Shown here one piece after another: positions 5,109-31,822 of a DNA stretch of 32,000 bases (its first letter is position 1; each line of letters begins with the position of its first letter). The notes under the pieces are model-generated. The model saw only the letters and a program-made list of their open reading frames with translations, made no database searches and was not told the DNA's origin. Both the position numbers and the translations under genes were made by a program. Source of the stretch: Candidatus Saccharimonadota bacterium (GTDB lineage Bacteria > Patescibacteriota > Saccharimonadia > Saccharimonadales > Saccharimonadaceae); assembly GCA_001029695.1 (NCBI GenBank), contig CP011211.1, forward strand, positions 960,001 to 992,000. The letters run 5' to 3'.

Positions 5109-5111
5109 TCT

Positions 5112-5561: not shown

Positions 5562-5578
5562 CGTACTTTACCTTTGCC

Positions 5579-5584
5579 CATAAT
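5579..5584 (+). promoter_or_regulatory. -10-like CATAAT, 6 nt upstream of ATG 5591
   Basis: The hexamer is followed by gtcgtt and then the ATG, with no SD. Confidence 0.3.
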
Positions 5585-5590
5585 GTCGTT

Positions 5591-7204: not shown

Positions 7205-7207
7205 GCT

Positions 7208-7975: not shown

Positions 7976-7987
7976 GTGCGCTATTCA

Positions 7988-7996
7988 TGATACGAT
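7988..7996 (+). promoter_or_regulatory. Extended -10 TGATACGAT upstream of the riboswitch
   Basis: TGnTAnnnT match. The predicted transcription start falls a few nt before riboswitch P1 (8014). Confidence 0.4.
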
Positions 7997-8013
7997 AGTA
8001 TTGTTAACAACCT

Positions 8014-8118
8014 AAATATCAAGAGTCTAGCGAGGGATACTGGCCCTACGACCTAGCGGCAACCGGGTGGAAACATCACGGTGCTACTTCCAGCCTGACG
8101 TAGTTCAGGAAGATATTT
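8014..8118 (+). promoter_or_regulatory. SAM-I (S-box) riboswitch aptamer upstream of metK
   Basis: P1 pairs AAATATC (8014-8020) with GATATTT (8112-8118). Conserved S-box blocks are present in the correct order: ATCAAGAG, GCGAGGGA, CTGGCCC, GCGGCAACC and ACGGTGCTACTTCCAGC. A P4 hairpin pairs CCTGA with TCAGG. Confidence 0.9.
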
Positions 8119-8175
8119 TTCTTTTTATAGAAGTATTCTTTCTGAATGCCAATGGGTAGATAGAAAGGATTTTTT

Positions 8176-9150
8176 ATGTCTATTGAATCAAACTACCGAA
8201 CCGCAGAGAGTGTGAGTCCAAAACATCCGGATAAGATCGCTGATCAAATTTCTGATGCAATTCTTGATGCTCATCTCGTTAAAGATCCTAGGGCGCGAGT
8301 TGCTGTAGATGTTGCAGGTGGTCATGGCAAGATCTATGTGACCGGGGAAGTAACCTCACATGTGACGGATATAAATGTGCCCTCTATAGTGCAGCGACTC
8401 GCGGGAGATAGTATCGAGTTGATTGAGAATATTGCCGAACAGAGTCTGGAGATTGCTCAAGGGGTCGATACCGGTGGTGCGGGAGATCAGGGTATCGTTG
8501 TAGGCTATGCGACGAGCGAGACTCCTGAGTTACTTCCAAAAGAAGTGGTGTTGTCTCGTGCGCTTAATCAGCATCTTTATAGGTCATGGCCATGCGATGG
8601 TAAGACGCAGATTACACTCAATGGCAAGGGTGATATTGTTGGGGTGGTGGCGAGTTTTCAGCATGCACCAACACCTCATCTAAAAGAAACAGTGGAGTCA
8701 TGGCTTGATGATTTTGCGGTGGCCGAACAGGTTCGTATTCATGTAAATCCTGCAGGGGATTGGCATATTGGTGGATTTGATGCGGATGCAGGGCTGACTG
8801 GTCGTAAGCTTGCAGTAGACAACTATGGTCCGCGTATTCCTGTTGGGGGTGGGGCATTTAGTGGTAAAGATCCAAGCAAGGTTGACCGTAGTGCGGCGTA
8901 CGCGGCACGGCAAGTCGCCGTACGATACCTTCACGAGCGACAGGCCGATGAAGTGTTTGTGCGTATTGCCTATGCAATCGGCGTGGCTGAGCCGCTCGAG
9001 CAAACAGTGATTGTCGATGGCGCGGCAGAGCAGATCACGGGTTTTGACCTAACCCCAAATGGAATTATAAAAAGCCTTAATCTTAGAAGGCCTATTTATG
9101 AACAAACAGCAAGATATGGTCATTTTGGCCATGGATTTGACTGGGAGTAG
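8176..9150 (+). CDS. metK: S-adenosylmethionine synthase (compact, 324 aa)
   Basis: ESVSPKHPDKIADQISDAILDA, GAGDQGIVVGYAT, GGGAFSGKDPSKVDRSAAYAARQVA, YAIGVAEP, TARYGHFG. The SD AGAAAGGA lies 6 nt upstream. Confidence 0.95.
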   Translation: MSIESNYRTAESVSPKHPDKIADQISDAILDAHLVKDPRARVAVDVAGGHGKIYVTGEVTSHVTDINVPSIVQRLAGDSIELIENIAEQSLEIAQGVDTGGAGDQGIVVGYATSETPELLPKEVVLSRALNQHLYRSWPCDGKTQITLNGKGDIVGVVASFQHAPTPHLKETVESWLDDFAVAEQVRIHVNPAGDWHIGGFDADAGLTGRKLAVDNYGPRIPVGGGAFSGKDPSKVDRSAAYAARQVAVRYLHERQADEVFVRIAYAIGVAEPLEQTVIVDGAAEQITGFDLTPNGIIKSLNLRRPIYEQTARYGHFGHGFDWE

Positions 9151-9250
9151 TCAGGTTTCGTGTCAAGGAAAAATATACAACGCTTAAGCTGCAAGCATGT
9201 GCTTTAGATGTAGTACAATGAAACAAGTTGTAAAAAAAGAAAGTTAGAAT

Positions 9251-10321
9251 ATGGAACCTGAAACCCCTCAAGAAATTGATCAGACTATTGATGTCGTCGA
9301 AGAAAACACACAAGAAGATAAAGCGTCACGTATTGAGCCAGAAGAGACGCATGCTTTGGATGCTACGGATATCTTTTTATGGGCGAACAATACTGATGGG
9401 GTAAAAAAAGAATTGGATGTTGAGTTCTTTTTGTTCAATAAAAACTACACGCCATATTCGACAAACTTCGCGAGTGAACTCAATGCCCAAATCAAGCCAC
9501 TTTTTCTGTTTGATTTGATTAACTTTGTTAATCTTGGTGCAGGCACTGGTCTTAGTGTCAGAGACTTTGAAATGAGCGAGGGTGAAGATAATGTACTGCT
9601 TCGGACAGATCTTGATAAGGTCGGACGAGCTGAAACGCTTCTTCACCTTATCGAAAATGAGCGTCATGATATGGTTGAGTTTAGCGAAAGTGAGCATGAA
9701 TTTAAGCGCATCAAAGGTATCATTGCGAAATTTTCACATAAAGATTCACCCGACAAAGTCTTTTACAGTATTAAGCAGATCCAGCAGGGGAGTGTCCTTA
9801 AGGGCGCTACTGCATGGGAATTTCGTGATGGTAAGTTTGGTGCGTTTCAGGCGGAAGTTGGACTTAAAATTCCAGATGACAACCAAGTACTTATTATCGA
9901 CAAAGATATATTCGTGTTTAATCAGTCAAAATTTGAAAAATTGTTTAACTATGAGTACAAGAAGCAGCTTCTCGCTGATCAAAAGGTAGCCGAAATAGAA
10001 GATAAGTTCCAGCTTAGCTTTCCTGACGGCCTTGATCTACAGTCACTTGTACGAGATCGAAAAAAGATCGTCAATAAGCTCCAGAAGATGGAGATTGGTG
10101 ATGTTACTCAAGAGCAGGCGGTTGAGTATGCTGATGAGATGCAATTAGAGCTGATGACTGATGATGCAGGCGCGATTATCATTATGGATGGTAATGATCT
10201 TGATACATTTGTGAATCTTATCAATGAAGACTACATCACTAGCCATGTAACAGGTAAGCGTTACGAGATTAAGAGCAAGAAACTCCTCGATGATGCAGAG
10301 GGTGAGCCACCTCGTGGATAG
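9251..10321 (+). CDS. KwaB-like (DUF4868-like) protein, 356 aa
   Basis: Clear ORF with an acidic N-terminus. The central IIDKDIFVFNQSKFEKLFNYEYKKQLLADQKVAEIE and C-terminal DTFVNLINEDYITSHVTGKRYEIKSKKLL resemble my recollection of Kiwa KwaB/DUF4868. I have not verified this by search. Confidence 0.45.
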   Translation: MEPETPQEIDQTIDVVEENTQEDKASRIEPEETHALDATDIFLWANNTDGVKKELDVEFFLFNKNYTPYSTNFASELNAQIKPLFLFDLINFVNLGAGTGLSVRDFEMSEGEDNVLLRTDLDKVGRAETLLHLIENERHDMVEFSESEHEFKRIKGIIAKFSHKDSPDKVFYSIKQIQQGSVLKGATAWEFRDGKFGAFQAEVGLKIPDDNQVLIIDKDIFVFNQSKFEKLFNYEYKKQLLADQKVAEIEDKFQLSFPDGLDLQSLVRDRKKIVNKLQKMEIGDVTQEQAVEYADEMQLELMTDDAGAIIIMDGNDLDTFVNLINEDYITSHVTGKRYEIKSKKLLDDAEGEPPRG

Positions 10322-10342
10322 CTCGTCAGTGAGTTCTGCCGA

Positions 10343-10864
10343 CTAGTAGGTGAGTGTATACTTGCACAATGTAAGGCCGCTCGATACGGAGGTTTCAACT
10401 ACAAGGTCATCGGGGCAAGAATTATTTGATTCAAATGCTCCAATAAGCTTGATGTCTGTCGCTCCTATGATTGCATATGGCCCAGCGTACGTAGCGACGG
10501 CTGAAGTTGATACAGAAGGAAGTGTAGGACTAACGCGCTTTAATTCGTTCATGAGCCCTGTACTTGCAGCGACAGTTGGCGCTGTCGAAGATGATGTGTC
10601 GGCGCACTTTCCTGTAGAAAAACTACTTCCGAGGCAATATGAGCCGGTTGCCTGAGAAGGATAAGTACTGAAACGTGTCTTATATAGCTCGAAGGTTGAT
10701 TTCCATGTCTCAAGTTCATTGGCGCGCGCTGTATTGCGCGATTGAACTGATACGCCATTCCATCCTACGACTACGATAGCTGCAAGAATTGCCATGACAG
10801 CAATGACGATGAGAAGTTCGATGATAGTAAAGCCAGTGGGTTTTTTATACATTGATTTAATCAT
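10343..10864 (-). CDS. Type IV pilin-like protein (prepilin N-terminal methylation motif)
   Basis: MIKSMYKKPTG/FTIIELLIVIAVMAILAAI is a class III signal peptide. The SD GGAG lies 10 nt upstream of ATG 10864. I rejected the ORF-track extension to 10948. Confidence 0.85.
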   Translation of the reverse strand: MIKSMYKKPTGFTIIELLIVIAVMAILAAIVVVGWNGVSVQSRNTARANELETWKSTFELYKTRFSTYPSQATGSYCLGSSFSTGKCADTSSSTAPTVAASTGLMNELKRVSPTLPSVSTSAVATYAGPYAIIGATDIKLIGAFESNNSCPDDLVVETSVSSGLTLCKYTLTY

Positions 10865-10928
10865 AAGCAATATACTCCATGTGTGCAATGGTACAGGAAG
10901 AAAATAAATGAAAACAAGAGGAGCTAAA

Positions 10929-10946
10929 GGAGGTATGCACACCTCC
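10929..10946. promoter_or_regulatory. Inverted repeat GGAGGT-6 nt-ACCTCC in the pilin/pif1 divergent region
   Basis: 6-bp arms at 10929-10934 and 10941-10946, immediately upstream of the pif1 extended -10. Confidence 0.3.
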
Positions 10947-10950
10947 AAGC

Positions 10951-10959
10951 TGTTATACT
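10951..10959 (+). promoter_or_regulatory. Extended -10 TGTTATACT, 7 nt upstream of the pif1 ATG
   Basis: TGnTATACT at 10951-10959, with ATG at 10967. The spacer is aaaaaga and contains no SD. Confidence 0.45.
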
Positions 10960-10966
10960 AAAAAGA

Positions 10967-12493
10967 ATGAATCAGGGATTAGCTCTAGAAATTATGCTTT
11001 CAGGTGAAAGCGTTTTGTTGACCGGACCAGCGGGAGCAGGTAAGACATTTGTATTAAATCAGTTTATTAAGATTGCTAAGGCTGACGGCAAACACGTCTC
11101 TGTAACCGCTACGACAGGACTAGCCGCCACGCACCTAGGTGGTACGACAATTCATTCTTGGTCGGGAATGGGTATTCTTGATCATATTCCCGAGGGGTTT
11201 GCGGCGCATGTTGCAAAAGGTCGTCGAGAAATTATAGAGAAGACTGATGTATTGATTATCGATGAGATTTCGATGTTGCACGACTATCGTCTTGATATGG
11301 TTGATGAGGTATGTCGGCTGATTCGGCGAAAAGATATTCCATTTGGCGGCATACAGGTGATTATGTCTGGAGACTTCTTCCAGTTACCTCCAATAAATAG
11401 AGGTGATTCACGTGCAGGTGGATTTGTTGTACATAGTAACGTCTGGCAAGAACTTGACCCGACGATCTGCTATCTCCAGGAACAGCACCGTCAGGATGAT
11501 GAGCATCTCCTCGATATTCTCAATTCACTTCGAGCCGGCGATATACGGCGTCATCATGCCGAAAAGCTGCTTGCACGTGTCGAGGCTACGCCACCTGAGG
11601 GTATGGTGATGACTGAGCTACATACGGTGAATATCGATGTCGACAAACTAAATGAGCAACGACTCGATGCGCTTTCGGGTGATGAGCTTTTTTATACACA
11701 GTCAACAACGGGAGCTGACAATTACGTTGAAAACCTTCAACGATCCGTACTTGCCCCTGCGACACTTCGACTCAAAAAAGGTGCGTTGGTAATGGCAGTG
11801 AAAAACGCAACTGATCGTAGATATGCCAATGGGAGTATTGGGACGGTGATTGATTTTGAGAGCGGTACTGAATATCCTGTTGTTGAGTTTAAAACGGGGC
11901 GTATTGTGAGTATGCAGCCTGATAGTTGGGAGCTTCGCGATGGCGACAAAAAGCGTGCGAGTATCAGTCAAATCCCTCTTAGGCTTGCCTGGGCGATTAC
12001 GGTCCACAAGAGTCAAGGAATGACGCTCGATGCCGCAAGGATTGATCTGCGAAAAGCATTTGTAGAGGGGATGGGATATGTGGCGCTTAGTCGTGTGAAA
12101 AATCTTGAGAATCTCTATCTCGAAGGAATTAATCGTATGGCGCTTGCGGTGAGCGAAGATGCTCAGGCTATTGACGCGAATCTGCGCACACGAGCAAGTA
12201 ATGATGTTAAAAAATTCTCACATCTTGAGGTCAAAGCTGAAAAACGTAAGCATGCACCTGAGCCTAAGAAAAAGCCAGCCGTAGGGTCGAGTGGTTGGGC
12301 TGATAAAATTGCTAAGATGCGCGAGACGCATCCAAACGCGTATAAGCCATGGACAAATCAGGACGATTCTCTCTTAAAACAAGAATTCCAAAATGGTGTT
12401 TCCGTTGCGGGACTAAGTGAACAGCTTGGTCGGCATGAGGGAAGCGTGAAGATGCGTCTGCAAAAGCATTTCGGTGAGGATGCAGTTCAGTAA
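10967..12493 (+). CDS. pif1: Pif1/RecD-family ATP-dependent DNA helicase with a C-terminal HTH-like domain
   Basis: Walker A GPAGAGKTF, Walker B IIDEISML, SGDFFQLPPI and TVHKSQGMTLD. The C-terminal WTNQDDSLLKQEFQNGVSVAGLSEQLGRHEGSVKMRL looks like an HTH. Confidence 0.85.
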   Translation: MNQGLALEIMLSGESVLLTGPAGAGKTFVLNQFIKIAKADGKHVSVTATTGLAATHLGGTTIHSWSGMGILDHIPEGFAAHVAKGRREIIEKTDVLIIDEISMLHDYRLDMVDEVCRLIRRKDIPFGGIQVIMSGDFFQLPPINRGDSRAGGFVVHSNVWQELDPTICYLQEQHRQDDEHLLDILNSLRAGDIRRHHAEKLLARVEATPPEGMVMTELHTVNIDVDKLNEQRLDALSGDELFYTQSTTGADNYVENLQRSVLAPATLRLKKGALVMAVKNATDRRYANGSIGTVIDFESGTEYPVVEFKTGRIVSMQPDSWELRDGDKKRASISQIPLRLAWAITVHKSQGMTLDAARIDLRKAFVEGMGYVALSRVKNLENLYLEGINRMALAVSEDAQAIDANLRTRASNDVKKFSHLEVKAEKRKHAPEPKKKPAVGSSGWADKIAKMRETHPNAYKPWTNQDDSLLKQEFQNGVSVAGLSEQLGRHEGSVKMRLQKHFGEDAVQ

Positions 12494-12494
12494 G

Positions 12495-13349
12495 TTATTT
12501 GAGCCTGGCGACTTTTATACTGCCATCAGTGACATAAAATGTCCGAATCTGCTGTCCACGAAACCGCAGTTCTTCACCCGAAGCAGTGACGAATGATTTT
12601 TTTATACACTTGTTAGCTTCAAGGGAAGATAAGATAAAGTCCCGTTCTTTATCGCTGTCATGACTACCGCCGTGCGTGAGACGACCAGTACGCCATTGGA
12701 TATCGATCGCGTGCGTCTCTTCAGTTGCTGCACCAATCCATACTTCACGTGTGCCAGAAAAGAGATGCTGTAATTTATCTTGCCAAAAATGATAATGACC
12801 CTCGTTGCGCGCGCCGCTATTTGGTTCCTCTAGTCGCCAAAACCGTACATGGTGACGTGTCCGCGCGCTCCCTGCAGTATTTGTTGGAATCTCAAAGCCT
12901 ATGTCGTGCGTACGATCAAAGAGATAGAGATTGCTCAGTGGTGCCTCTGGATAAGACCGATTAAATACGATAGACAATACTTCCCGAAATCCATTTTTGA
13001 AAGTAAGAGGATCAGCTGTGTACCAGCCGGCTTCTTGCATTTTGTGCTCTAGGTGGGAGCGATTTTTGACGATCAGCGCTAGGTTGACGGGGTCGGAAGG
13101 CCAGCCGTCACCAGTCGTTACGTAGAGAGGGATATGATGCGGGCGGGAAAATACATGGAAAAGTCGCATGAGGTTGGGTATGACGACGTATGCCATGAGA
13201 CAGTAAAGCAGGAGGAGGCCAAAAAAGAAGGCGAGTTGACTATCCGCATATGGCCATGCTGTATAGCTGATGCCGGCAAAAATAATACACCCAAGCAGAA
13301 AAATAAGTGCTCGCCATAGCGTACGAAGAATAAAACGAAGTTGTGACAT
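12495..13349 (-). CDS. Membrane protein with an LssY-like C-terminal domain
   Basis: Two N-terminal TM helices, then GWPSDPVNLALIVKNRSHLEHKMQEAGWYTADP, which is typical of the LssY_C family (from memory). Confidence 0.55.
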   Translation of the reverse strand: MSQLRFILRTLWRALIFLLGCIIFAGISYTAWPYADSQLAFFFGLLLLYCLMAYVVIPNLMRLFHVFSRPHHIPLYVTTGDGWPSDPVNLALIVKNRSHLEHKMQEAGWYTADPLTFKNGFREVLSIVFNRSYPEAPLSNLYLFDRTHDIGFEIPTNTAGSARTRHHVRFWRLEEPNSGARNEGHYHFWQDKLQHLFSGTREVWIGAATEETHAIDIQWRTGRLTHGGSHDSDKERDFILSSLEANKCIKKSFVTASGEELRFRGQQIRTFYVTDGSIKVARLK

Positions 13350-13359
13350 GATTGTAGTT

Positions 13360-13365
13360 ATTATA
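13360..13365 (-). promoter_or_regulatory. TATAAT (minus strand), 10 nt upstream of ATG 13349
   Basis: ATTATA on the plus strand equals TATAAT on the minus strand. It lies within the 64-nt divergent intergenic region. Confidence 0.35.
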
Positions 13366-13399
13366 CCTTACAAAATCATCTTCGTGTGAGACGGTGCGG

Positions 13400-13405
13400 T
13401 ATAAT
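13400..13405 (+). promoter_or_regulatory. TATAAT, 8 nt upstream of ATG 13414
   Basis: The hexamer is followed by agaatgat and then the ATG, with no SD. Confidence 0.4.
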
Positions 13406-13413
13406 AGAATGAT

Positions 13414-14676
13414 ATGAGTACAACACCGGCATCGAAGCCATTTCCGAAAAAATTCCTTTGGGGCGCCTCTACTGCAGCACATCAAGTAGAAGGGGGTAAC
13501 CACAATCAATGGTCAGTCTGGGAGCTCGAGAACGCAAAGAGTCTTGCGACGCAGTCTGAATATCATTACCATGACCTCGAGAGCTGGTCTCGCATTAAGA
13601 AAGAGGCCACATCACCTCAAAACTACATCTCAGGCGATGCAAGTGACCACTATGTTCAGTATGAAAAAGATTTCGACATTTTAACAAAGCTCAATATGAA
13701 TGCGTTTCGTTTTAGTGTCGAATGGTCTCGCATTGAGCCGCAAGAGGGGGCGTGGAATGCTGAGGCGATCGAGCACTACAAGCACTATGTGCAAGCATTG
13801 AAGCAGCGAGAGATTGAGCCTATCGTGACGTTATTTCATTTTACATTGCCCGTATGGTTTAGTGAGCTTGGTGGGTTTGAAAAGAAGAAAAATATCCACT
13901 ATTTTACACGCTTTGCAGAAAAGATCATTAGTGAACTCGGGGTGTCAGTTCGGTACATAATTACCATCAATGAACCAGAGGTGTATGCACACGAAAGCTA
14001 TCTTGCTGGTAATTGGCCGCCGATGAGGCAGAGCAAGAAAACGATGATCACAGTGCTCAACAATCTCGCAATAGCTCATAAGCAGGCAGCGAAGGTTATC
14101 CATACGCTGAATCGGCGATATAAAGTGTCTGTAGCGAAGAATTCTTGTTATTTTTATGCAGGTGACGATGCGTTGTTGAGTAGGAAAACTGCGGACATTA
14201 TGCAATACGGTCAAGATGACTATTTCCTTAAAAAAGTTGCAAAACACTGTGACTTTCTCGGAGTTAACTACTATTTTAGCAATCGAGTATACGGCTATCG
14301 CGTACATAACCCGGATATTGATATGAGTGATTTGGGATGGGATTTAAGCCCTGCAAATATCCAGCAAGTACTCGAGCGGCTTCATGACAAGTACGAACTA
14401 CCAATCATTATTACTGAAAATGGACTTGCCGATGCAACGGACGAACATCGAAAGTGGTGGCTTACCCATACAATTATAGCTATGCAACGAGCAATGGCGT
14501 ATGGCGTGAAACTCGAGGGATATCTTCACTGGAGTCTCCTTGATAATTTTGAGTGGGATAAGGGGAAGTGGCCGCGATTTGGGCTTATTGCTGTTGATTA
14601 TGCTACGCAAAAGCGTTCAGCACGCCCGAGTGCTATATGGTTGTCTAAAACATTAAAAAAACTGAGGGGAATATAG
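13414..14676 (+). CDS. Glycoside hydrolase family 1 beta-glucosidase
   Basis: FLWGASTAAHQVEGG, acid/base motif ITINEPEV, nucleophile motif IITENGLAD, and WSLLDNFEW. Confidence 0.9.
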   Translation: MSTTPASKPFPKKFLWGASTAAHQVEGGNHNQWSVWELENAKSLATQSEYHYHDLESWSRIKKEATSPQNYISGDASDHYVQYEKDFDILTKLNMNAFRFSVEWSRIEPQEGAWNAEAIEHYKHYVQALKQREIEPIVTLFHFTLPVWFSELGGFEKKKNIHYFTRFAEKIISELGVSVRYIITINEPEVYAHESYLAGNWPPMRQSKKTMITVLNNLAIAHKQAAKVIHTLNRRYKVSVAKNSCYFYAGDDALLSRKTADIMQYGQDDYFLKKVAKHCDFLGVNYYFSNRVYGYRVHNPDIDMSDLGWDLSPANIQQVLERLHDKYELPIIITENGLADATDEHRKWWLTHTIIAMQRAMAYGVKLEGYLHWSLLDNFEWDKGKWPRFGLIAVDYATQKRSARPSAIWLSKTLKKLRGI

Positions 14677-14680
14677 CTTG

Positions 14681-15709
14681 ATGATGAAAGAACCGTTTGC
14701 TCGCACTGAAATAAAGATTGCTGTTATAGGTGGGGGGACGGGTAGTTTCACATTACTCAGCGCGCTAAAGGATCACACTTCTCAAATTGCAGCTCTGGTA
14801 AATATGGCAGACGATGGCGGAAGCACAGGGGTGCTGCGCGATGAGCTTGGTGCGCTGCCTCCTGGTGATGTACGCCAGTGTCTTGTGGCACTGAGTCGAA
14901 CACCTGAGGTACGTGATCTGTTTGACTATAGGTTTGATGAAGGTAGCTTAAAAGGTCATGCCTTTGGCAATCTATTTTTAACAGCACTTGAAAAGATGAC
15001 AGGTGACTTCGGAAAAGGCGTTGAACTTGCGAGTCAGGTACTCAATATCACTGGTGTCGTGGAGCCTATTACGCTGACGAACGTAAAGCTAGCGATGCGT
15101 CGCGCTTCGGGCGAGGAGACGCATGGTGAGTTTGAAATAGCACATAAAGAGTTTAAGGATGAGAAGCCTGAATTCTGGCTCGAGCCGAATGCGACGCCAA
15201 ATCCAAGGGCTATCCGCGCAATTGAGTCTGCCGATATTGTCGTTATTGCACCTGGTAACCTCTACGGTAGTCTCGCACCTGCATTGATCGTTCCTGGTGT
15301 AGGCGAAGCGCTCGCACGAACGAATGCATTTAAGGTGTACGTTTGTAATCTTGTTACAAAGCCTGGTCAGACGGATGACTATAAGGTGAATGATTTTGCT
15401 GATGAGATAGAGCGACTTGCGGGCACTCGATTTCTCGATGCGGTTCTATACAATACCAAAAGGCCGACAGATGACTTGATGGATAAATATGCCAAAGCAG
15501 GCGAGAGGAGCGTTGAGTATGATGACGCTACTCTTGAGGCGGCTCCGTATATTGCTGCGGGCACAAATCTTCTCGCAGGATCAATTTGGAAGAATTTTAA
15601 CGCAGCAGATCCAATCGCTGCGAGTCGTACGTTGATACGTCATGACTCTGCGGCGGTAGCGGCGGCAATTATCGAATTATACGAGTATAATCGTGGCTCT
15701 AAGAGTTAA
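14681..15709 (+). CDS. yvcK: YvcK/CofD-family gluconeogenesis factor-like protein
   Basis: IAVIGGGTGSFTLLSALK...LVNMADDGGSTGVLRDELGALPPGDVRQCLVAL. The SD GAGGGGA lies 10 nt before ATG 14681. Confidence 0.85.
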   Translation: MMKEPFARTEIKIAVIGGGTGSFTLLSALKDHTSQIAALVNMADDGGSTGVLRDELGALPPGDVRQCLVALSRTPEVRDLFDYRFDEGSLKGHAFGNLFLTALEKMTGDFGKGVELASQVLNITGVVEPITLTNVKLAMRRASGEETHGEFEIAHKEFKDEKPEFWLEPNATPNPRAIRAIESADIVVIAPGNLYGSLAPALIVPGVGEALARTNAFKVYVCNLVTKPGQTDDYKVNDFADEIERLAGTRFLDAVLYNTKRPTDDLMDKYAKAGERSVEYDDATLEAAPYIAAGTNLLAGSIWKNFNAADPIAASRTLIRHDSAAVAAAIIELYEYNRGSKS

Positions 15710-25310: not shown

Positions 25311-25343
25311 AAGGGTAGTGCTACTATTATAGGTATTGATTAT

Positions 25344-25370
25344 GAGGAGCTATGACTCCTCTTTTCTTTT
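25344..25370 (+). terminator. Rho-independent terminator after ftsQ
   Basis: GAGGAG (25344-25349), 6-nt loop, CTCCTC (25356-25361), then TTTTCTTTT. Confidence 0.6.
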
Positions 25371-25375
25371 GCAGT

Positions 25376-25401
25376 ATGTTCTATTTTTGTTCTATCTTTT
25401 A
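25376..25401 (+). repeat. Direct repeat copy 1: ATGTTCTATTTTTGTTCTATCTTTTA
   Basis: Matches 26131-26157 except for one substitution and one 1-nt indel. Contains the internal half-repeat GTTCTAYTTTT. Confidence 0.8.
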
Positions 25402-25870
25402 CGTATCATGGCGTGATAGAGAAAAAACATATAATAATATCATAATAACAAAAAAGCAAATAGGTGAGTAAGACTCAAAAAGAGGGTAGTAGGTAATAAA
25501 AAGAGAGAAATGCAAACATCTAAAAAACTATAGCAATATGTGGAAAACTATATAAAGTCAAATTATGACACATGAGTCAAATGGTGCTTCTTGTTGTCGT
25601 GGCTACATAGATGGATCTATATATAAAAGCTGTAGCTTGTATAGCGTGACGATACGTATGATCATCAGTATTGAACTGAGGTTTGTTGTATACACTAGAT
25701 GAATATACATACTACTCCACTGAGAGTTAGTGTGTTTTCGGTATGTGTTTCTATATGTGGTCAAATAGCATACATTAAGGATGTATACTGAATCATCTTA
25801 TGTTTATTATACTAATGTCGTAAAAGATATATTGTGCGACGTAAGATCATTGTATTGATGCTGGTGTAGT

Positions 25871-25879
25871 TGTTATGAT
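25871..25879 (+). promoter_or_regulatory. Extended -10 TGTTATGAT upstream of the 66-aa ORF
   Basis: TGnTATGAT at 25871-25879, about 45 nt before ATG 25924. The leader carries the SD AAAGGA. Confidence 0.4.
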
Positions 25880-25923
25880 TCATCCATACAAATTAACGGT
25901 TCCGTCACCAAAGGAAAAAATCC

Positions 25924-26124
25924 ATGAATCACGACAACGCCCTACCATCAATCGCCCGCTTCTCTTTAGTCGAAAAAACGTCTAAAGTCGGTAATCTCTA
26001 CACTGAAGGAATTTTGCATTTAAATAATGATTATCAAATCCGTGTCGAGTTCTTAGCGCCGAATCTTATTACAGCCATCAAAGAATCTCTCAAACTTGCT
26101 AAAAAACAGACCCTCCAAGATTAA
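25924..26124 (+). CDS. Hypothetical protein, 66 aa
   Basis: The SD AAAGGA lies 8 nt upstream, with a candidate promoter further upstream and a TAA stop. I recognise no family. Confidence 0.5.
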   Translation: MNHDNALPSIARFSLVEKTSKVGNLYTEGILHLNNDYQIRVEFLAPNLITAIKESLKLAKKQTLQD

Positions 26125-26130
26125 TAACTA

Positions 26131-26157
26131 ATGTTCTACTTTTGTTCTATTCTTTTA
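26131..26157 (+). repeat. Direct repeat copy 2: ATGTTCTACTTTTGTTCTATTCTTTTA
   Basis: See 25376-25401. The distal part can form a small hairpin (GTTCTA ttcttt TAGAAC). Confidence 0.8.
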
Positions 26158-26169
26158 GAACACTCAATT

Positions 26170-26196
26170 AAAAAATACTGAATGTCGCGGTTCAGT
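26170..26196 (-). terminator. Rho-independent terminator of the minus-strand ATPase operon
   Basis: On the minus strand: ACTGAA, 8-nt loop, TTCAGT (plus-strand 26177-26196), followed by a T-run (plus-strand A-run 26170-26175). The stem includes the TGA stop of the 3-TM gene. Confidence 0.6.
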
Positions 26197-26494
26197 TAAT
26201 ATATTCAGATCGATAGATAAAGTACAGTGCATATAGACACGCTAAGATTGCAGGGATGAGATATCCGTATACTGATCTTTTGTAGGCATTTTTATGTTTA
26301 CGATTCACTATACTGCTTGTAATGCCGCATACGATTATGATTGGTATTCCATACCCTACCGCGAAGAGAATGCCAATGCCCGTGAGCATATCAGTATCGG
26401 TTGGAGGTAATATGGATGTCGCCATCATGACTACCCATACAGGGCTTAGGATAATTGAGAGTATGAGTATGCCGTGTAGGATTTTATTAGCCAT
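26192..26494 (-). CDS. Small integral membrane protein (100 aa, about 3 TM helices)
   Basis: Three hydrophobic segments. The gene starts 42 nt downstream of the ATPase gene on the same strand, and is one of only two TGA-terminated genes in the window. Confidence 0.6.
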   Translation of the reverse strand: MANKILHGILILSIILSPVWVVMMATSILPPTDTDMLTGIGILFAVGYGIPIIIVCGITSSIVNRKHKNAYKRSVYGYLIPAILACLYALYFIYRSEYIN

Positions 26495-26536
26495 AGTAGT
26501 GTGTGGGTATTTTAGATTATGCGTAAAGGCTACTAT

Positions 26537-29500
26537 TTATCGTAGTCGAAGTATTCCGTCATCCTGGGGTTTTTGCTGAGGAGTGGGCGCTTGTGGTGTA
26601 GCGACAGGCGCTTGTGGTGGCTGTAAAGGCTTTTTATCAACAGGGGGTGTTGATGGCACCACTTTAGTGTGATCGACGCGTAGTTTTGTTGGATCTGGTG
26701 ATGGCTTGTGGGGTGATGCTTGAGCAGGTGTGTGAGGCTGCTCTCGCCTGTGCGGTGAAGCGCCGTGAGGTATTGTAGGCGCCACTGTAGAGTCTTGCTG
26801 ATGCTGTCTTGGTGCTTGAAGGATTTCGTTCGTAGGGGTGCTTTTTTGTCGCTGAAGTTCAGCACTCCCTACCTCACTTGAGGCTGAACTTTGAGTAGTT
26901 TGATCTGAGTGTATCGCTGAAGGGTTCTTCTTTTTGCGACTACGAGTTCGTTTTTTCTTGACGGGCGTGCCGTCGGGATTGAGTGCGACTGGTGTATTCG
27001 CCACTGTGTTCTGCTGTTGTGGCAGTCGAGGCGGCTGCGGTTGCTGGTTTTGAGTGACACTACTCCCCTGCTCCGCCTGAGAGCTCGAAGATGGGTTTTC
27101 TATGATTATGCGCGGCTTGTTTGGCTGTGCGGGAACTACGGATTTGTTCTGAGAGTCGACGGGCCATTGCTTTGCCTGTGCACTTGACTGAGGTGGTTTC
27201 TTTTGAAGATTTTCTGGCATTTGTATGACATCGGAGATCGACTTCTCTACCTCGGCTCGAGGGAGACTGTAGAGTTGGCGAGAGTGTTCAATTATATGTG
27301 CGGTGTTGTCGACTTGAGGTGGCGGAAGCTGCAATGTTCGAGCGCTAAATGCTGGTGTTTTCTCTCCGTTGATTACCATATTGATGACAAAGTTTCGGTT
27401 GTGCATCTGGAGTAGATCATTTGCTTCAAACTGAGGTTCGAACTGCTTAGAGAGAATCGGAGCGTCGTCTGCAGATACGCGGAAACAAATCATCGTTCCG
27501 ACATTTCCGAAGACTGCATCTCGAACAGTTTCATTCATCTGGCTGATGTATTGGTTTGCTACTGTAAGATTGAGCGCATACTTACGTGCCTCAGAGAGGA
27601 TAGTGGCAAATGAATCGGTTGCAAAGTTTTGGAATTCGTCTACATAGAGGTAGAAAGGGCGACGGTCTTTGATATCTGGAATATCCGATCGACTCATCGC
27701 TGCAAGCTGGATTTTGGTTACGAGGAACGATCCAAGAATAGAGGCGTTGTCCTCACCAATAAGGCCTTTTGATAGGTTAACGATAAGAATCTTTCCATCG
27801 TCCATGATCTCGCGAATGTTGAAAGTACTTTTTGGTTGGCCGATAATGTTTCGAATCACAGGGTTTGCGGTAAACGCTCCTACTTTATTGAGTACAGGTG
27901 CGACGGCTTCAGCGACAAACTTGTCATTCCAGCTCGCAAATTCTACTGTCCAGAATTGCATAACGACCGTATCCGTACAGTAGCTGAGTGTCTCCTTTCG
28001 GAATTTTTTGTCAGTAAGCATACGAGTAATATCGAGCATAGTCGTCTCTGGGCGGTCGAGAAGCGCCAAGATAGTATAGCGAAGGATGTATTCGAGGCGA
28101 GGTCCCCAGCTTTCACCAAACATACGCTTCATAACTCCGATCACTTCTGAGCTGATATTACTCTTCATCGATGGATCGGTGACTTCAAGCGGGTTAAATC
28201 CGAGCGGGAATGCTGTGTCTGCTGGGTTGAAATATACGACATCTTTCATGCGCGAGGCAGGGATAAACCGCATATTATCGACTGCAAAGTCTCCGTGTGG
28301 GTCGATTATTGCGTAACCGTGATTATGGAAAATGTCTGAAAGTGCAAGAAGCGAGAGAGTACCGGTCTTACCTGCCCCAGTTTGACCAATGACGTACATA
28401 TGCCTTGAGCGATCAAAATTGAGCATGCCAAACTGATGGTTGATGCCGCGGAAATTAGTTAGGCCGAAGGCGCTAATGTTTTCATCGATTGCAGCGTTGC
28501 CTGTGATGATCGGTAGCTTCGCTGGTGGTTCAGCGGTTTTACTGCTCGCCCATACGATATTTGGTGTCTCAACGTTTGTGTGTGGTAAGTGGAAGACGCT
28601 GGCAACTTCTTCGATATTAAGGACAAACCCTTTATCAATAAAGAGTCGTGCTCGGTACTGCCCAAGGTCTTCTTTTTTGAAACTCGCCCCAGACACACGA
28701 AAACCGTTCAAGTTAGTACTGTTGTACTGTTTGAACGTACCGACGATAGCTTGCATACGTTGCTTGGCGATAGTTGTGTCTTCACCGAGATATGCAAGAC
28801 GAATCTTCACTTGGTAGCCAAGTTTTGTTGCTTTCTTTTCAGCTTCTGAAATACGAGTTTTGTTGCGTTCAGAAATCTCCTTTGGCGCTGGCGCACCGCC
28901 CGCTCCTTGCTCGGGCGGTTTCCATAGAGCTTCAAAAAGGCCTAGTATCCACTTCATACTAAACCCTTCACCACCTGTCAGCATTGTCATCGCGCCACTA
29001 CCGCCGCTCTTTACTGACTTTACCCAGTTATCGGAATCCTTGTGCCATGTGTCTGGAATCGGGCGAACGAGTACTTGCACCCAAAGCTCCTCGCCTGACG
29101 ATGGAGTACTGCCAGTTGACTCTGATTCGAGCTTCGCAAGTGTTCCGGTGATGCCGGCAAGAGGATCTACTTCAAAGCTCTGGAATGATTTGATAGGAAG
29201 AAACTCGCTATCAGTAAGTGTAATCTCGCTTGTGTAGATGACGCTATGTTCGCGTTCGTGCGAAACATAGTCTTCATCGGCTTCATGAATCTGGACAGTT
29301 GGGTACTGAGCATAGATCTGCCCTTCTACGAAACTTTGCAGAGCTTTCGGTACCCATACATAGAAGCGGATCTGACCATTGACGGAAGCGATCTCAAAAC
29401 TAAGATGTTCTTGGATTCCACCGTTTAGTTTCAGCTCTTCTTTATCGCGTAGTATGCCGTGGAGACTCGCAAATAACTGTTCCGCAGCCATTTCTGACTT

Positions 29501-29665
29501 GTCGTTTGCCTTTGGAATCTCAAGAATGAGCAGTGTGCTTTCGATAGCTTTGACAGCGTCGATACGCTGATAGTTTTTCCACGTAAGGTATCCCAAAAAA
29601 AGCACGATGGGAAGCCATACGTACCACGAAAGGAGCAGCCCGAAGATCCAGGATATAAGTTCCAT
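26537..29665 (-). CDS. Membrane-anchored TraD/VirD4-like (FtsK/HerA-superfamily) P-loop ATPase, 1042 aa
   Basis: N-terminal TM helix (ISWIFGLLLSWYVWLPIVLFLGYL) followed by about 400 aa I cannot assign. Walker A VIGQTGAGKTG, AIIDPHGDF, and Walker B-like FYLYVDEFQNF. The C-terminus is an approximately 220-aa P/Q/S-rich tail. Confidence 0.8.
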   Translation of the reverse strand: MELISWIFGLLLSWYVWLPIVLFLGYLTWKNYQRIDAVKAIESTLLILEIPKANDKSEMAAEQLFASLHGILRDKEELKLNGGIQEHLSFEIASVNGQIRFYVWVPKALQSFVEGQIYAQYPTVQIHEADEDYVSHEREHSVIYTSEITLTDSEFLPIKSFQSFEVDPLAGITGTLAKLESESTGSTPSSGEELWVQVLVRPIPDTWHKDSDNWVKSVKSGGSGAMTMLTGGEGFSMKWILGLFEALWKPPEQGAGGAPAPKEISERNKTRISEAEKKATKLGYQVKIRLAYLGEDTTIAKQRMQAIVGTFKQYNSTNLNGFRVSGASFKKEDLGQYRARLFIDKGFVLNIEEVASVFHLPHTNVETPNIVWASSKTAEPPAKLPIITGNAAIDENISAFGLTNFRGINHQFGMLNFDRSRHMYVIGQTGAGKTGTLSLLALSDIFHNHGYAIIDPHGDFAVDNMRFIPASRMKDVVYFNPADTAFPLGFNPLEVTDPSMKSNISSEVIGVMKRMFGESWGPRLEYILRYTILALLDRPETTMLDITRMLTDKKFRKETLSYCTDTVVMQFWTVEFASWNDKFVAEAVAPVLNKVGAFTANPVIRNIIGQPKSTFNIREIMDDGKILIVNLSKGLIGEDNASILGSFLVTKIQLAAMSRSDIPDIKDRRPFYLYVDEFQNFATDSFATILSEARKYALNLTVANQYISQMNETVRDAVFGNVGTMICFRVSADDAPILSKQFEPQFEANDLLQMHNRNFVINMVINGEKTPAFSARTLQLPPPQVDNTAHIIEHSRQLYSLPRAEVEKSISDVIQMPENLQKKPPQSSAQAKQWPVDSQNKSVVPAQPNKPRIIIENPSSSSQAEQGSSVTQNQQPQPPRLPQQQNTVANTPVALNPDGTPVKKKRTRSRKKKNPSAIHSDQTTQSSASSEVGSAELQRQKSTPTNEILQAPRQHQQDSTVAPTIPHGASPHRREQPHTPAQASPHKPSPDPTKLRVDHTKVVPSTPPVDKKPLQPPQAPVATPQAPTPQQKPQDDGILRLR

Positions 29666-29732
29666 AATTTACTTCTCTATTGTCGCACCTGTCGCCTCTG
29701 TATGCAATGGCAGATACGACGAGTGCGGAGGG

Positions 29733-30794
29733 TTATTTTTTAGCAGGTTCTTCAACGAGTGAGTAGGTTGCTTTTGCAACGCGCTTGAACTGTGGTTTGC
29801 TCTGTAGATTGAGGAGGATTGTCGTTTCTTTGACTTGTCGATTCTTGAGGACACGTTTCACGATCTCGTCGCGGTGAAGTGGCTCTTCTGATTTTCGAAG
29901 GATGTCGGCGATAGTATCAGCGACAGTTCCTTTGCTGTAACCCCAGCTGTCGAGCGCGTAGATGCCACGACCGATCAACACGAAGCGCTTGTCTTTGATG
30001 AGTTCGTTGTGAATCGCCTGTGTTGTGACGTTTTTGCGGCTAAAATTACTTTCCTTGATTGCATCGGCAATTTCAGAAAAATGAAGTGGCTTGCCATTTT
30101 CAGCGAGAATAACGTAGATTTTATCACGAATATTCTTTGGATTGACCGTTGGCCATTTGATAAGTCCCCAGAGGTCTTTTAGATGCGCAAGGTGCTTGCT
30201 GACGCTTGCAAGTGCGCGAACCTGGCTTGGGTGCTCGTAGTTGAGTTGCTCGTGAAGCTGGTCGATTGTGAGTGGCTCGCCATGCTTTTTGATAGCTTTA
30301 ACAATTGCGTCAACTTCTGTACGAATCTTCTTCTCATCACCGAAATCTTTGATAGCAACGGCATGACGATAATTATCGTTTTCATTTACGACAGTGAGGT
30401 TTGGCGCGAGCTCTGCGATAAATGCAACGCGAGCACGCTCAAGAGGTTCTGCAGTTTTGCCGAGTAATTTATTGGCAAGGTCAGTGACGGTTGCAAGGCG
30501 GCCCATCTCAGAGAGGTCGCGGACGATTTGCTTCTCTACTGCTGGGACTGCTGGAATTTTTCCTTCTTCAGCTGCGATCTTGAGGCGAATAAGAATAGCC
30601 TTTTCGAGCTGACGAACACGCTCTCTCGTGATGCCAAGGAGTTCACCGATTTGCTCAAGCGTCTCTTTGCGATCGTAAAGACCGAAACGACGGGTGATGA
30701 TTTCTCGTTCTCGCTCTTGATCGATTGTGCCAAGAATTGTTTCAACAATTGTATTGATATCAAGTGTTGTCTCTGTTTTGGGAGCTTCGCTCAT
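29733..30794 (-). CDS. Sigma-70 region-4 HTH protein fused to two HARE-HTH-like domains
   Basis: REREIITRRFGLYDRKETLEQIGELLGITRERVRQLEKAILIRLK is sigma region 4. KIYVILAENGKPLHFSEIADAI...RFVLIGRGIYALDSWGY and VADTIADILRKSEEPLHRDEIVKRVL...ATYSLVE are HARE-HTH-like. I chose ATG 30794 (SD GAGAGGA); ATG 30893 is an alternative start. Confidence 0.7.
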   Translation of the reverse strand: MSEAPKTETTLDINTIVETILGTIDQEREREIITRRFGLYDRKETLEQIGELLGITRERVRQLEKAILIRLKIAAEEGKIPAVPAVEKQIVRDLSEMGRLATVTDLANKLLGKTAEPLERARVAFIAELAPNLTVVNENDNYRHAVAIKDFGDEKKIRTEVDAIVKAIKKHGEPLTIDQLHEQLNYEHPSQVRALASVSKHLAHLKDLWGLIKWPTVNPKNIRDKIYVILAENGKPLHFSEIADAIKESNFSRKNVTTQAIHNELIKDKRFVLIGRGIYALDSWGYSKGTVADTIADILRKSEEPLHRDEIVKRVLKNRQVKETTILLNLQSKPQFKRVAKATYSLVEEPAKK

Positions 30795-30910
30795 AATGTG
30801 GTATCGTCCTCTCTGCCTCACCTCAGACTGCATTGGATTTGTTATTTTCTCAATGTATTCACTATAAAACAAATTTTTCATAATGTCAAACATTTTTCTT
30901 GATTTATTCA

Positions 30911-30919
30911 ATTATAGCA
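30911..30919 (-). promoter_or_regulatory. Extended -10 TGCTATAAT (minus strand) for the sigma-like/ATPase operon
   Basis: Plus-strand ATTATAGCA at 30911-30919 equals TGCTATAAT on the minus strand. Confidence 0.45.
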
Positions 30920-31036: not shown

Positions 31037-31822
31037 TTAACAATTGCCTTGACGTGCTGAGCCGCCTGGACGGATCATCCATGGCGAGCTAGCGCTCACA
31101 CTATGTACTACGCGAAGACAATAGTATGCGCCGCTTTCGATAGGTGTGGCGCTCGGTAGTTCTTCTTTTACTACTCCGTTTCCAGGGGTCGCCCAAGAAT
31201 CCCAGAATGTCATAATTGGAAATGAGCCACCCTGCGCGTTAAGCCGATTGATAAGTTCTTGATAGAACCCTCGTACGGTTGACTGTTGATTGGGGTGCCA
31301 AGCATCGCCAGCTGGAACAGATGCAATATAGTCACTGAAGGTTGCTTCCGCAACTGGTGTTGCGAACACCTTAGATTCCCAACCGGTGACTTGCATACTA
31401 CCGTGATTCCAGTTACCACAGCCGGTAATGTATGTGTCAGTGCCACCTCCCAGATTGACTCCTTGGCCGAAACCTTCGTTTATCAGGTCTTGGCAGATTT
31501 GAGCCATTAGCACGCCATTTTGCACAGCTGAGACTCGATCATAATACGGCAGTGATGATTCGACGAGCGAGAGAGTTACTTTTGGTGAAGGCTTAGCAGT
31601 AGCAGGAAGTGCCGTTGGATAATGGCCATCGATCGTTTTTGCTATTTCCATGTGTTTGGCTGCTTGCGTGAGATCGTTTTTGATTGTGGTTTCGATTGCT
31701 CTACTCTGGACACTGCTAAATGCTACGAGAGTGATTGCTGCGAGTATGCCGATTACGACAATAACAATGAGCAGTTCAACTATAGTAAAGCCTGAGTTTT
31801 GTTGAGGTGCCCACCGGTTCAT
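31037..31822 (-). CDS. Type IV pilin-like protein (261 aa)
   Basis: MNRWAPQQNSG/FTIVELLIVIVVIGILAAI is the prepilin cleavage/methylation motif. The globular domain contains four cysteines. Confidence 0.85.
   Translation of the reverse strand: MNRWAPQQNSGFTIVELLIVIVVIGILAAITLVAFSSVQSRAIETTIKNDLTQAAKHMEIAKTIDGHYPTALPATAKPSPKVTLSLVESSLPYYDRVSAVQNGVLMAQICQDLINEGFGQGVNLGGGTDTYITGCGNWNHGSMQVTGWESKVFATPVAEATFSDYIASVPAGDAWHPNQQSTVRGFYQELINRLNAQGGSFPIMTFWDSWATPGNGVVKEELPSATPIESGAYYCLRVVHSVSASSPWMIRPGGSARQGNC

Follow-up and report, generated by a model that had tools for sequence, protein, structure and literature searches.

In a 32,000-nucleotide (nt) stretch of DNA from a Candidatus Saccharimonadota bacterium (GenBank assembly GCA_001029695.1, contig CP011211.1, positions 960,001 to 992,000; hereafter the window), a minus-strand gene string encodes a helix-turn-helix (HTH) protein, composed of a sigma-70 region 4 domain and winged helices, and a membrane-anchored ATPase resembling type IV coupling proteins (T4CPs), the N-terminal part of which belongs to the Pfam family PF26449 (DUF8128). 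We found that the pairing of these two genes away from the channel genes of type IV secretion systems (T4SSs) is real and conserved, while the trio proposed in an initial annotation of the sequence, which had added a 100-amino-acid (aa) protein with three transmembrane (TM) segments, does not recur as a whole in related genomes. Members of the ATPase family are already on record as T4CP homologues located far from virB4 (PMC12102498). New, as far as we could find, are the homology of the whole protein to coupling ATPases of monoderm and archaeal plasmids, the predicted VirB4-like character of its N-terminal domain (N-domain), and a deep linkage of the HTH gene with DUF8128 that includes split forms of the ATPase.

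The HTH gene and the ATPase gene stay together over deep divergence

Loci anchored on the ATPase were sampled from one genome per species and analyzed with our own open reading frame (ORF) calls, phmmer, and clustering. In 48 of the 72 informative genome loci, the HTH gene immediately precedes the ATPase gene in the same orientation, mostly with gaps of 9 to 140 nt, and in about five further genome loci it lies within 3 kb; this pair is the part of the proposed trio that held, the gene for the 3-TM protein being present in this genome only. The order in the Saccharimonadia is Der, Pth, DprA, TopA, HTH, ATPase, a convergent 318-aa ORF at the position of FtsQ, MurG, FtsW, MraY, and PBP, in which the last four were named by their Pfam families, the 318-aa ORF had no Pfam match, and Der, Pth, and TopA are what we take the genes to be from reading representative sequences. 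Since gene order is broadly conserved in the class, adjacency within the Saccharimonadia is weak evidence on its own.

Loci outside this arrangement were more informative about the pair. Deep-branching Berkelbacteria-type loci (45% ATPase identity) carry a paralogous ATPase (P2), a 170-aa protein, the HTH gene, the ATPase under study (P1), and then SecDF, such that the HTH gene lies between two DUF8128-ATPase paralogues. When the sampling was anchored on the HTH protein instead, metagenome contigs yielded 18 full-length homologues of 27 to 70% identity, and in 13 of them the HTH gene was followed by a co-directional DUF8128 ORF, with LeuRS, YceG, or PGK on the flanks in place of TopA and the dcw genes. 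In several of these metagenome loci and in one genome locus (L076), DUF8128 and the motor are encoded by two separate ORFs, and four loci have the DUF8128 ORF alone after the HTH gene, with no adjacent ATPase. Because split and DUF8128-only loci retain it, the link between HTH and DUF8128 is the most persistent one. The adjacency is kept across unrelated flanks, through gene fission, and between paralogues, and it is therefore more than inherited synteny. These data indicated that the association of the HTH protein with the ATPase is real and has been kept among distantly related lineages and in more than one genomic setting.

Several individual loci deserve mention. An apparent fusion of HTH protein and ATPase (a 1340-aa ORF in L016) proved to be an artefact of an N-masked stretch. 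Two Berkelbacteria-type loci, L188 and L190, contain a co-directional cluster (~950 to 15500) that opens with a 355-aa protein (224 aa in L190), continues with a ~1000-aa protein having a glycine-rich TM region, a DUF5663 protein, and an acidic low-complexity protein of ~400 to 460 aa, and ends with the P2 DUF8128 ATPase, the 170-aa protein, the HTH gene, and the P1 ATPase; a 111-aa protein with two TM segments is encoded between HTH and P1 in L188. These extra genes could be further parts of the HTH-ATPase module. In the Dojkabacteria-type loci L075, L078, and L080 (~6000 to 12600), the DUF8128 ATPase has no HTH neighbour and is preceded by what we take, from sequence reading, to be DnaB and RluD and followed by presumed YebC-RuvC-RuvA-RuvB genes, a setting of recombination genes.

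The ATPase is a coupling-protein-type motor with an extra N-domain

Against Pfam, the ATPase matched TrwB_AAD_bind (E value, 1.8e-9), T4SS-DNA_transf, and TraG-D_C above the gathering cutoffs, and DUF87 was matched as well; all 50 homologues examined matched T4CP families as well. The sequence contains the motifs GQTGAGKT and FYLYVDEFQNF, and none of the 50 homologues departs from it at the Walker residues. The initial annotation had described a T4CP-type P-loop core with these motifs, one N-terminal TM helix, and a disordered tail of ~220 aa, all of which were borne out (the tail measures 213 aa), and it had regarded ~400 N-terminal residues as unassignable. The latter are in fact covered by DUF8128, which lies N-terminal to the P-loop core, according to the precomputed Pfam annotation of the identical protein P0001 and of all listed homologues. 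In a 50-sequence alignment reaching down to 44% identity, the DUF8128 domain has about 50 invariant positions, a count similar to that of the motor domain, and among many Saccharibacteria the ATPase is 82 to 89% identical over 830 aa. The DUF8128-ATPase family is large, with 23,431 representatives of 50%-identity clusters at an E value of ≤1e-3 and 6,474 at ≤1e-30, and we found no publication on DUF8128 or PF26449. Thus, the ATPase is a coupling-protein-type, membrane-anchored P-loop motor with intact Walker motifs and an extra, strongly conserved N-domain.

The single-helix anchor is atypical, canonical T4CPs usually having two TM helices. Every TraD, VirB4, and HerA model of NCBIfam scored far under its cutoff on the ATPase, and the FtsK_SpoIIIE domain was matched marginally in 17 of the 50 family members (best E value, 0.0024). 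An assignment as FtsK/SpoIIIE, or as a substitute for FtsK, was rejected, given the one TM helix, the lack of a gamma domain, and the canonical essential FtsK of Southlakia epibionticum.

Confident AlphaFold2 (AF2) models were obtained for residues 1 to 830 (pLDDT 83) and for residues 36 to 400 (pLDDT 85, pTM 0.81), and they predicted a helical block (residues 498 to 608) inserted in the RecA core. When the full model was searched with Foldseek, the best match was full-length R388 TrwK/VirB4 (~900 columns; E value, 1e-14), followed by HerA and TrwB and then by Cag-beta and DotL; the match to TrwB extended over ~414 columns with an E value of 7e-13 and a TM-score of 0.65 normalized to TrwB. The isolated N-domain gave 12 PDB matches at an E value of ≤1e-3, all of them TrwK/VirB4 chains. 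Its match to TrwK had a probability of 1.0 and an E value of 3.6e-5, but the TM-score was 0.38 to 0.43 and the root mean square deviation ~10 Å. Sequence searches did not reproduce this likeness. CagE_TrbE_VirB was matched in none of the 50 family members and AAA_10 weakly in 20 of them, TIGR00929 (VirB4) scored 19.4 bits against a cutoff of 643, and a profile search against the PDB returned only the P-loop regions of TrwB, DotL, and HerA; sequence comparison thus provided no proof of homology to the VirB4 N-terminal domain. A VirB4-like fold of the DUF8128 domain is moderately supported by the predicted models.

Compared with the TrwB/VirD4 proteins (R388 TrwB, PDB 1E9R; also Cag-beta and DotL), the ATPase has the same fold of a nucleotide-binding domain (NBD) with an all-alpha insert but bears one TM helix and a DUF8128 domain of ~360 residues, whereas TrwB possesses two N-terminal TM helices and no N-domain. 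With VirB4 (R388 TrwK, PDB 7O42 / 8RTD), it has the two-domain layout in common but lacks a CagE_TrbE_VirB match and stays far below the TIGR00929 cutoff. The Patescibacteria T4SS cluster encodes a VirB4 of its own, separate from the DUF8128 ATPase (PMC12102498, PMC10633639).

Relatives of the ATPase in monoderm and archaeal conjugation systems

A tblastn search of plasmids with the ATPase returned 611 records, 35 of which cover ≥80% of the query, the N-domain included. On a plasmid of Niallia sp. (Bacillaceae; NZ_CP137637), WP_338473401.1 is colinear with the ATPase, N-domain included, at 25% identity over 737 aa (E value, 2e-52); annotated as a DUF87 domain-containing protein, it matches DUF87 and TrwB_AAD_bind, as does the window ATPase. 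The gene order of this locus is DUF87-ATPase, Replic_Relax, TcpC, TcpE, VirB4-like AAA_10, and VirB6-like, and the homologue occupies the coupling-protein position of a Tcp-type conjugation locus. The N-domain, the P-loop core, and the helical insert are common to this Tcp / MPF-FA(TA) system and the window. In contrast, the window gene is chromosomal, has no Replic_Relax, TcpC, TcpE, VirB4, or VirB6 within 10 kb, and differs in its upstream sigma-r4/HARE-HTH gene and its 213-aa disordered tail. A homologue of the HTH protein was not found in the plasmid loci.

The Natronorubrum aibiense plasmid NZ_CP045489 encodes a separate hypothetical ORF of 395 aa that is homologous to the DUF8128 N-domain (E value, 3e-17), followed by a TraG-D_C ATPase with a TraM-recognition domain; a VirB6-like gene (TrbL_3) and genes labelled "conjugal transfer" adjoin. 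Such a split N-domain/ATPase form is also present in distant Patescibacteria loci, while the archaeal pair differs from the window in lying beside a VirB6-like gene and in having no HTH partner. A full-length relative is also encoded by Bacillus phage G (gp156; E value, 8e-56), next to gp155, which is annotated as "VirB-like"; gp156 accounts for the match to phrog_5156, from which a phage origin had been considered and then dismissed. Given the Niallia, Natronorubrum, and phage G relatives, the window ATPase is a relative of the coupling ATPases with which monoderm bacteria and archaea conjugate. Patescibacteria T4SSs are derived from MPF-FATA systems (PMC12102498), with which these relatives fit. 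The ATPase descends from conjugative coupling ATPases. Its vertical inheritance on the chromosome is supported by the 82 to 89% identity within Saccharibacteria, the position between topA and the dcw cluster, and the core, Patescibacteria-enriched status of the orthologue (PMC10633639).

IMG/VR contained only ATPase-only relatives, of ≤50% identity. Two of them, on L083 and L084, lack DUF8128 and are 45 to 50% identical to residues ~390 to 810. On L083, a putative viral contig (region of interest, 7986 to 9284 and 9399 to 10040), the ATPase adjoins a PLD-family nuclease, a holin, and an M23 peptidase; on L084 (7884 to 9254), a PLD-SNF2 helicase fusion lies ~3 kb from it. Together with a PADLOC match to mad8, these relatives suggest that the motor domain has a distinct branch in defence or in phages.

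The surroundings of the window gene itself contain none of the conjugation partners. When the other large ORFs of the window were scanned with Pfam, none matched VirB4, VirB6, a relaxase, or an integrase, as the initial annotation had stated. In the source contig, the 10 kb to the left and to the right of the ATPase gene are likewise free of genes for a T4SS channel, a relaxase, or an integrase. The flanks to 10 kb hold a pilin gene, a topA-family gene (assigned by cluster), dprA, and TerC on one side and dcw genes on the other. "No channel" is thus a statement on the neighbourhood of the ATPase gene and not on the genome; judging by the Patescibacteria literature, a T4SS almost certainly exists elsewhere in such genomes.

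The HTH protein combines sigma region 4 with winged helices

The HTH protein matched the Pfam families Sigma70_r4 (E value, 3e-12) and HARE-HTH (E value, 1.4e-10), and weaker winged-helix matches flank the latter. From these matches, we assign it a sigma-r4 domain and three winged helices, one of which scores as HARE-HTH. The sigma-r4 domain had been correctly recognized in the initial annotation, while of the two HARE-HTH-like domains given there one scores as such and the other winged helices are weaker. In an alignment of orthologues, TRERVRQ (the sigma region-4.2 motif) and HNELI...GRG.YAL..WG are both invariant, and conservation is strongest in HARE-HTH and the C-terminal winged helix. 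We found no publication describing a sigma-r4/HARE-HTH protein of Patescibacteria.

Two more familiar identities were rejected. Sigma70_r2 was not detected by Pfam, PDB sequence matches were restricted to sigma region 4, and all NCBIfam sigma models scored ~30 to 47 bits against cutoffs of 240 to 800; the protein does not qualify as a sigma-70 family sigma factor. Since only Sigma70_r4 was detected and the sigma models stayed below their cutoffs, the database name "RpoS" for an orthologue is unjustified. Nor is the protein the delta subunit of Firmicutes RNA polymerase (RNAP; RpoE), as its HARE-HTH is internal, the delta model TIGR04567 reached 36.8 bits against a cutoff of 42, and neither the sequence nor the orthologue alignment has an acidic disordered tail.

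The orthologous pair in Southlakia epibionticum

In S. epibionticum ML1, the pair corresponds to SEML1_0294 (HTH) and SEML1_0293 (ATPase) (Table S1/S2 of PMC10633639). Strand, order, and domain content are the same as in the window, and dprA and topA lie upstream in both; the gene after SEML1_0293 encodes a GNAT acetyltransferase, in place of the 3-TM protein (PMC10633639). SEML1_0294, annotated as "RpoS" with Sigma70_r4 and HARE-HTH and parsed by DPAM into one tri-helical and three winged domains, is a core, Patescibacteria-enriched gene that was essential at all time points by transposon sequencing (Tn-seq) (PMC10633639). Directly downstream, SEML1_0293 is likewise core and enriched and was called nonessential, with normalized reads falling about 4-fold over passages (5817, 2940, and 1372) while those of its neighbours stayed flat (PMC10633639). 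The T4SS genes of this species are essential, in a cluster without recognizable coupling and relaxase proteins, and so is SEML1_0096, a canonical FtsK (PMC10633639). A second ATPase of the same layout, SEML1_0142 ("TraM recognition domain"), is essential too (PMC10633639). In the run SEML1_0140 to SEML1_0142, the genes before this paralogue encode a small protein with DUF2178 and a hypothetical protein of 139 aa, the latter essential (PMC10633639).

The pair was not treated as a unit by Wang et al. (2023; PMC10633639). Quinonero-Coronel et al. (2025) counted 5,713 VirD4-type T4CP homologues in 2,918 Patescibacteria genomes, only 148 of them near virB4; T4CP genes were often remote from virB4 and near a relaxase gene, and for the S. 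epibionticum copy, nonessential and far from virB4, "exaptation cannot be ruled out" (PMC12102498). That discussion of "the" nonessential t4cp homologue may have overlooked the essential paralogue SEML1_0142. Where the initial annotation envisaged an uncharacterised translocation module, an ATPase without a local channel and its pairing with the HTH protein are upheld, the family was already on record (PMC12102498), and the 3-TM protein is not part of the picture.

A candidate substrate-recognition module for a distant T4SS

The reading we favour, at about even chances, is that the pair represents a domesticated coupling ATPase of monoderm type (Tcp / MPF-FA(TA)) and a DNA-binding adaptor acting with a distant T4SS. 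The ATPase would be anchored by its single TM helix, and the basic KNYQR stretch after the helix suggests that its bulk is cytoplasmic. The ~360-residue DUF8128 domain, with a predicted fold like that of the VirB4 N-terminal domain, would come next, followed by the TrwB-like RecA core with its all-alpha insert, presumably forming a hexameric ring, and by the variable disordered tail. The VirB4 N-terminal domain docks onto T4SS membrane subunits, and DUF8128 may in the same way offer a docking surface for the adaptor and/or for such subunits. In Patescibacteria, the coupling ATPase gene appears to have been separated from the channel genes, and in the Saccharimonadia and several more distant lineages it is preceded by the HTH gene instead, which adjoins the motor gene much like the relaxase-type gene of the plasmid locus. 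The HTH protein would then be the nucleic-acid-recognition partner of the motor, in a role likened to that of the winged-helix gamma domain of FtsK, and the motor would serve, in trans, the T4SS whose genes lie at another place in the genome. The gamma domain of FtsK and the winged-helix HTH (wHTH) of Streptomyces TraB are winged-helix DNA readers of membrane-anchored motors of the FtsK/HerA superfamily and serve here as a functional analogy only; in the window pair, the DNA readers reside on a separate protein. We consider the combination of an HTH adaptor, DUF8128 docking, and action in trans with a T4SS to be evenly balanced between right and wrong, and we infer the physical interaction of HTH and DUF8128, DNA as the substrate, and the use of the distant T4SS.

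Several observations weigh against this proposal. The HTH gene is not adjacent to the ATPase gene in one nested Saccharimonadia subclade, in L040 to L043, or in the loci from Dojkabacteria and Peregrinibacteria. Foldseek is the only basis for calling the N-domain VirB4-like, at a TM-score of ~0.4 and with no CagE_TrbE_VirB match in sequence. Neither the window nor the 10 kb to each side of the ATPase gene holds a relaxase, so that the processing of any DNA substrate would go unexplained. SEML1_0293 is nonessential while the T4SS genes of S. epibionticum are essential, so what makes the T4SS essential cannot depend on the ATPase; since the HTH orthologue, unlike the ATPase, is essential, the HTH protein must do more than serve this motor. 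Since VirD4 is dispensable for T-pilus biogenesis in Agrobacterium, the nonessentiality of SEML1_0293 is compatible with T4SS coupling. The T4SS of S. epibionticum may be essential in a pilus-related role, and the paralogue may also take over the essential function. The additional task of the HTH protein could be to serve the essential paralogue SEML1_0142 or to act on RNAP. We speculate that it is an adaptor for both paralogues, with which the Berkelbacteria-type position of the HTH gene between two paralogues fits; such a shared adaptor would be essential even though this ATPase is not.

Taken further, the relaxase-based substrate module might have been replaced in Patescibacteria by a sigma-r4/HARE multi-HTH protein for which the VirB4-like DUF8128 domain of either or both coupling-ATPase paralogues serves as the dock. 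The two would form a relaxase-independent module that delivers (or acquires) nucleic acid or nucleoprotein and supplies the T4SS on which the epibiont depends. This extension is speculative, and we regard it as unlikely. If it were true, the shared N-domain would point to a common two-domain ancestor of VirB4 and monoderm-type T4CPs, with subsequent loss of the N-domain from proteobacterial VirD4.

The favoured reading has to be weighed against three others. Exaptation might have turned the motor to a task on cellular DNA that does not involve the T4SS, such as membrane-tethered pumping of double- or single-stranded DNA in budding division, DNA uptake, or repair, with the multi-HTH protein reading chromosomal sites by analogy with the FtsK gamma domain or the Streptomyces TraB wHTH. 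Exaptation has already been raised in print for t4cp (PMC12102498), and the dispensability of SEML1_0293 beside an essential T4SS is consistent with it. The DNA- and division-related neighbourhood (dprA-topA upstream and the dcw cluster downstream), the genes that we read as YebC-RuvC-RuvA-RuvB beside the Dojkabacteria-type ATPase, and the DUF8128-only ORFs that follow the HTH gene with no adjacent ATPase in some lineages point the same way. However, flanking housekeeping genes vary by lineage and carry little functional information, the canonical essential FtsK of S. epibionticum means that the motor is no replacement for FtsK, and all close non-Patescibacteria relatives examined lie in T4SS or conjugation contexts. 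We consider exaptation a serious but rather doubtful alternative.

It is also unlikely, in our judgment, that the two genes merely adjoin while their products do not interact. The HTH protein would in that case be an essential RNAP-associated or global transcription factor, a mimic of sigma region 4 with a delta-like HARE-HTH, that may regulate the ATPase gene or simply share its transcript. The intact TRERVRQ motif, the near approach of HARE-HTH to the delta model TIGR04567 (36.8 bits against 42), the essentiality of the HTH protein but not of the ATPase, and the long-range conservation of gene order in the Saccharimonadia are in favour of this reading, but the adjacency persists in at least three unrelated flanks, at 30 to 37% HTH identity, through ATPase fission, and between two paralogues, and a dedicated regulator of a nonessential gene would itself be nonessential. 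That the locus is left over from an integrated conjugative element, or that it encodes a HerA / mad8-type ATPase for defence against phages, is highly improbable. The ATPase core does match PADLOC mad8 (E value, 1e-15) and HerA, ATPase-only relatives adjoin PLD nucleases in IMG/VR contigs, and a KwaB-like gene occurs elsewhere in the window. Yet the locus lacks an integrase, a relaxase, repeats, and a compositional break; the ATPase is 82 to 89% identical across species at a fixed position between topA and the dcw cluster and is a core family in Patescibacteria (PMC10633639); and the PADLOC matches are limited to its P-loop core, on which ground a defence system was rejected.

The preferred pairing of a coupling ATPase with an adaptor bears on epibiosis, as the T4SS belongs to the small number of machines demonstrated to be indispensable to Saccharibacteria living as epibionts. 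The orphan T4CP homologues emerge here as full-length relatives of monoderm and archaeal plasmid coupling ATPases with a putative VirB4-like N-domain, and their conserved gene partner is a sigma-r4/HARE-HTH protein that is essential in the sole species tested. The pair is a concrete candidate for a substrate-recognition module in a genetically tractable system, and its N-domain gives a structural clue to the relationship of VirB4 and coupling proteins. The analysis also corrects two misleading database entries, of which one names the HTH protein "RpoS" and the other implies that the ATPase has a T4SS close by.

Organization of the locus and the rest of the window

The three minus-strand genes, including the spacings of 67 nt between HTH and ATPase and 42 nt between ATPase and 3-TM gene, were described in the initial annotation as in our ORF listing (Table 1). 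The HTH protein likely starts at the ATG at 30794, since orthologue N-termini align there and both promoter-like sites lie upstream of it. The extended -10 noted earlier is present, and the TTGACA-17-TATAGT site scores better. At 26170 to 26196, which had been called an intrinsic terminator, there is only a 5-bp AT-rich hairpin with a T-run, which the terminator scan left uncalled. Rfam and tRNA scans detected no RNA elements in the three-gene locus.

Table 1. Features of the gene string (window coordinates; residues are those of the ATPase)
Feature	Position (nt)	Strand	Residues	Basis or remark
HTH gene	29733..30794	-		353 aa from likely ATG; maximal ORF 29733-30911, 392 aa
Sigma70_r4 within HTH gene	~30579-30716	-		Pfam
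HARE-HTH within HTH gene	~29943-30119	-		Pfam
DUF8128 + T4CP-like ATPase gene (P1 paralogue)	26537..29665	-		1042 aa, membrane-anchored
ATPase TM helix	29579-29656	-	4-29	Single hydrophobic segment
ATPase DUF8128 N-domain	28466-29548	-	~40-400	Pfam PF26449, AF2
ATPase NBD + all-alpha domain	27221-28423	-	~415-815	Pfam, AF2, Foldseek
ATPase Walker A	28364-28387	-
ATPase Walker B	27623-27655	-
ATPase disordered tail	26540-27178	-	830-1042	213 aa, P/Q/S/T-rich
3-TM ORF	26192..26494	-		100 aa, lineage-specific, outside conserved module
Sigma-70-like promoter match TTGACA-17-TATAGT	30861..30889	-		11/12 consensus positions; best in region; consensus match only
Extended -10 TGcTATAAT	30911..30919	-		Visible in sequence
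Weak hairpin ctgaa...ttcag + T-run 3' of 3-TM ORF	26170..26196	-		Sequence reading; doubtful terminator

The 100-aa protein has three hydrophobic segments and no family match in Pfam, NCBIfam, PHROGs, or PADLOC. Its phmmer homologues were confined to L001 and L002, both of which are this genome, and no positional equivalent is conserved: small multi-TM ORFs downstream of the ATPase are few and unrelated (L007, L023, L025, and L067) and absent from most loci. The 3-TM protein, once thought to be a membrane partner in the module, was therefore dropped as a conserved third member. The pilin gene beside the string (31037 to 31822, minus strand) fared likewise. A pilin gene between topA and the HTH gene was found in five loci only, from a few close relatives, so it is a lineage-specific insertion and not a part of the module. 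The second prepilin-type (N_methyl) gene of the window lies at 10343 to 10948 on the minus strand.

Between the 3-TM gene and the convergent 318-aa gene at the FtsQ position, ~880 bp (25311 to 26191; GC content, 0.38) contain a sole ORF of 66 aa, seen in this genome alone, and no Rfam match; the gap between the ATPase gene and the FtsQ-position gene is 600 to 850 bp in most related loci. The rest of the window encodes an aminoacyl-tRNA synthetase, CYTH, RNase H, YaaA, MetK with a SAM riboswitch, CofD, GH1, and the dcw cluster, as well as a KwaB-like protein, the second pilin, and a PIF1 helicase. The KwaB-like domain (Kiwa anti-phage system; Pfam E value, 2.5e-9) is found in a 356-aa ORF at 9251 to 10321 on the plus strand; within the left half of the window, the ORF lies in the kilobase whose GC content is lowest (0.395). 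A 508-aa PIF1-like helicase gene (10967 to 12493, plus strand) adjoins the second pilin gene, and the SAM riboswitch (RF00162, 59 bits; 8013 to 8119, plus strand) is an ordinary one, located upstream of metK (8176 to 9150).

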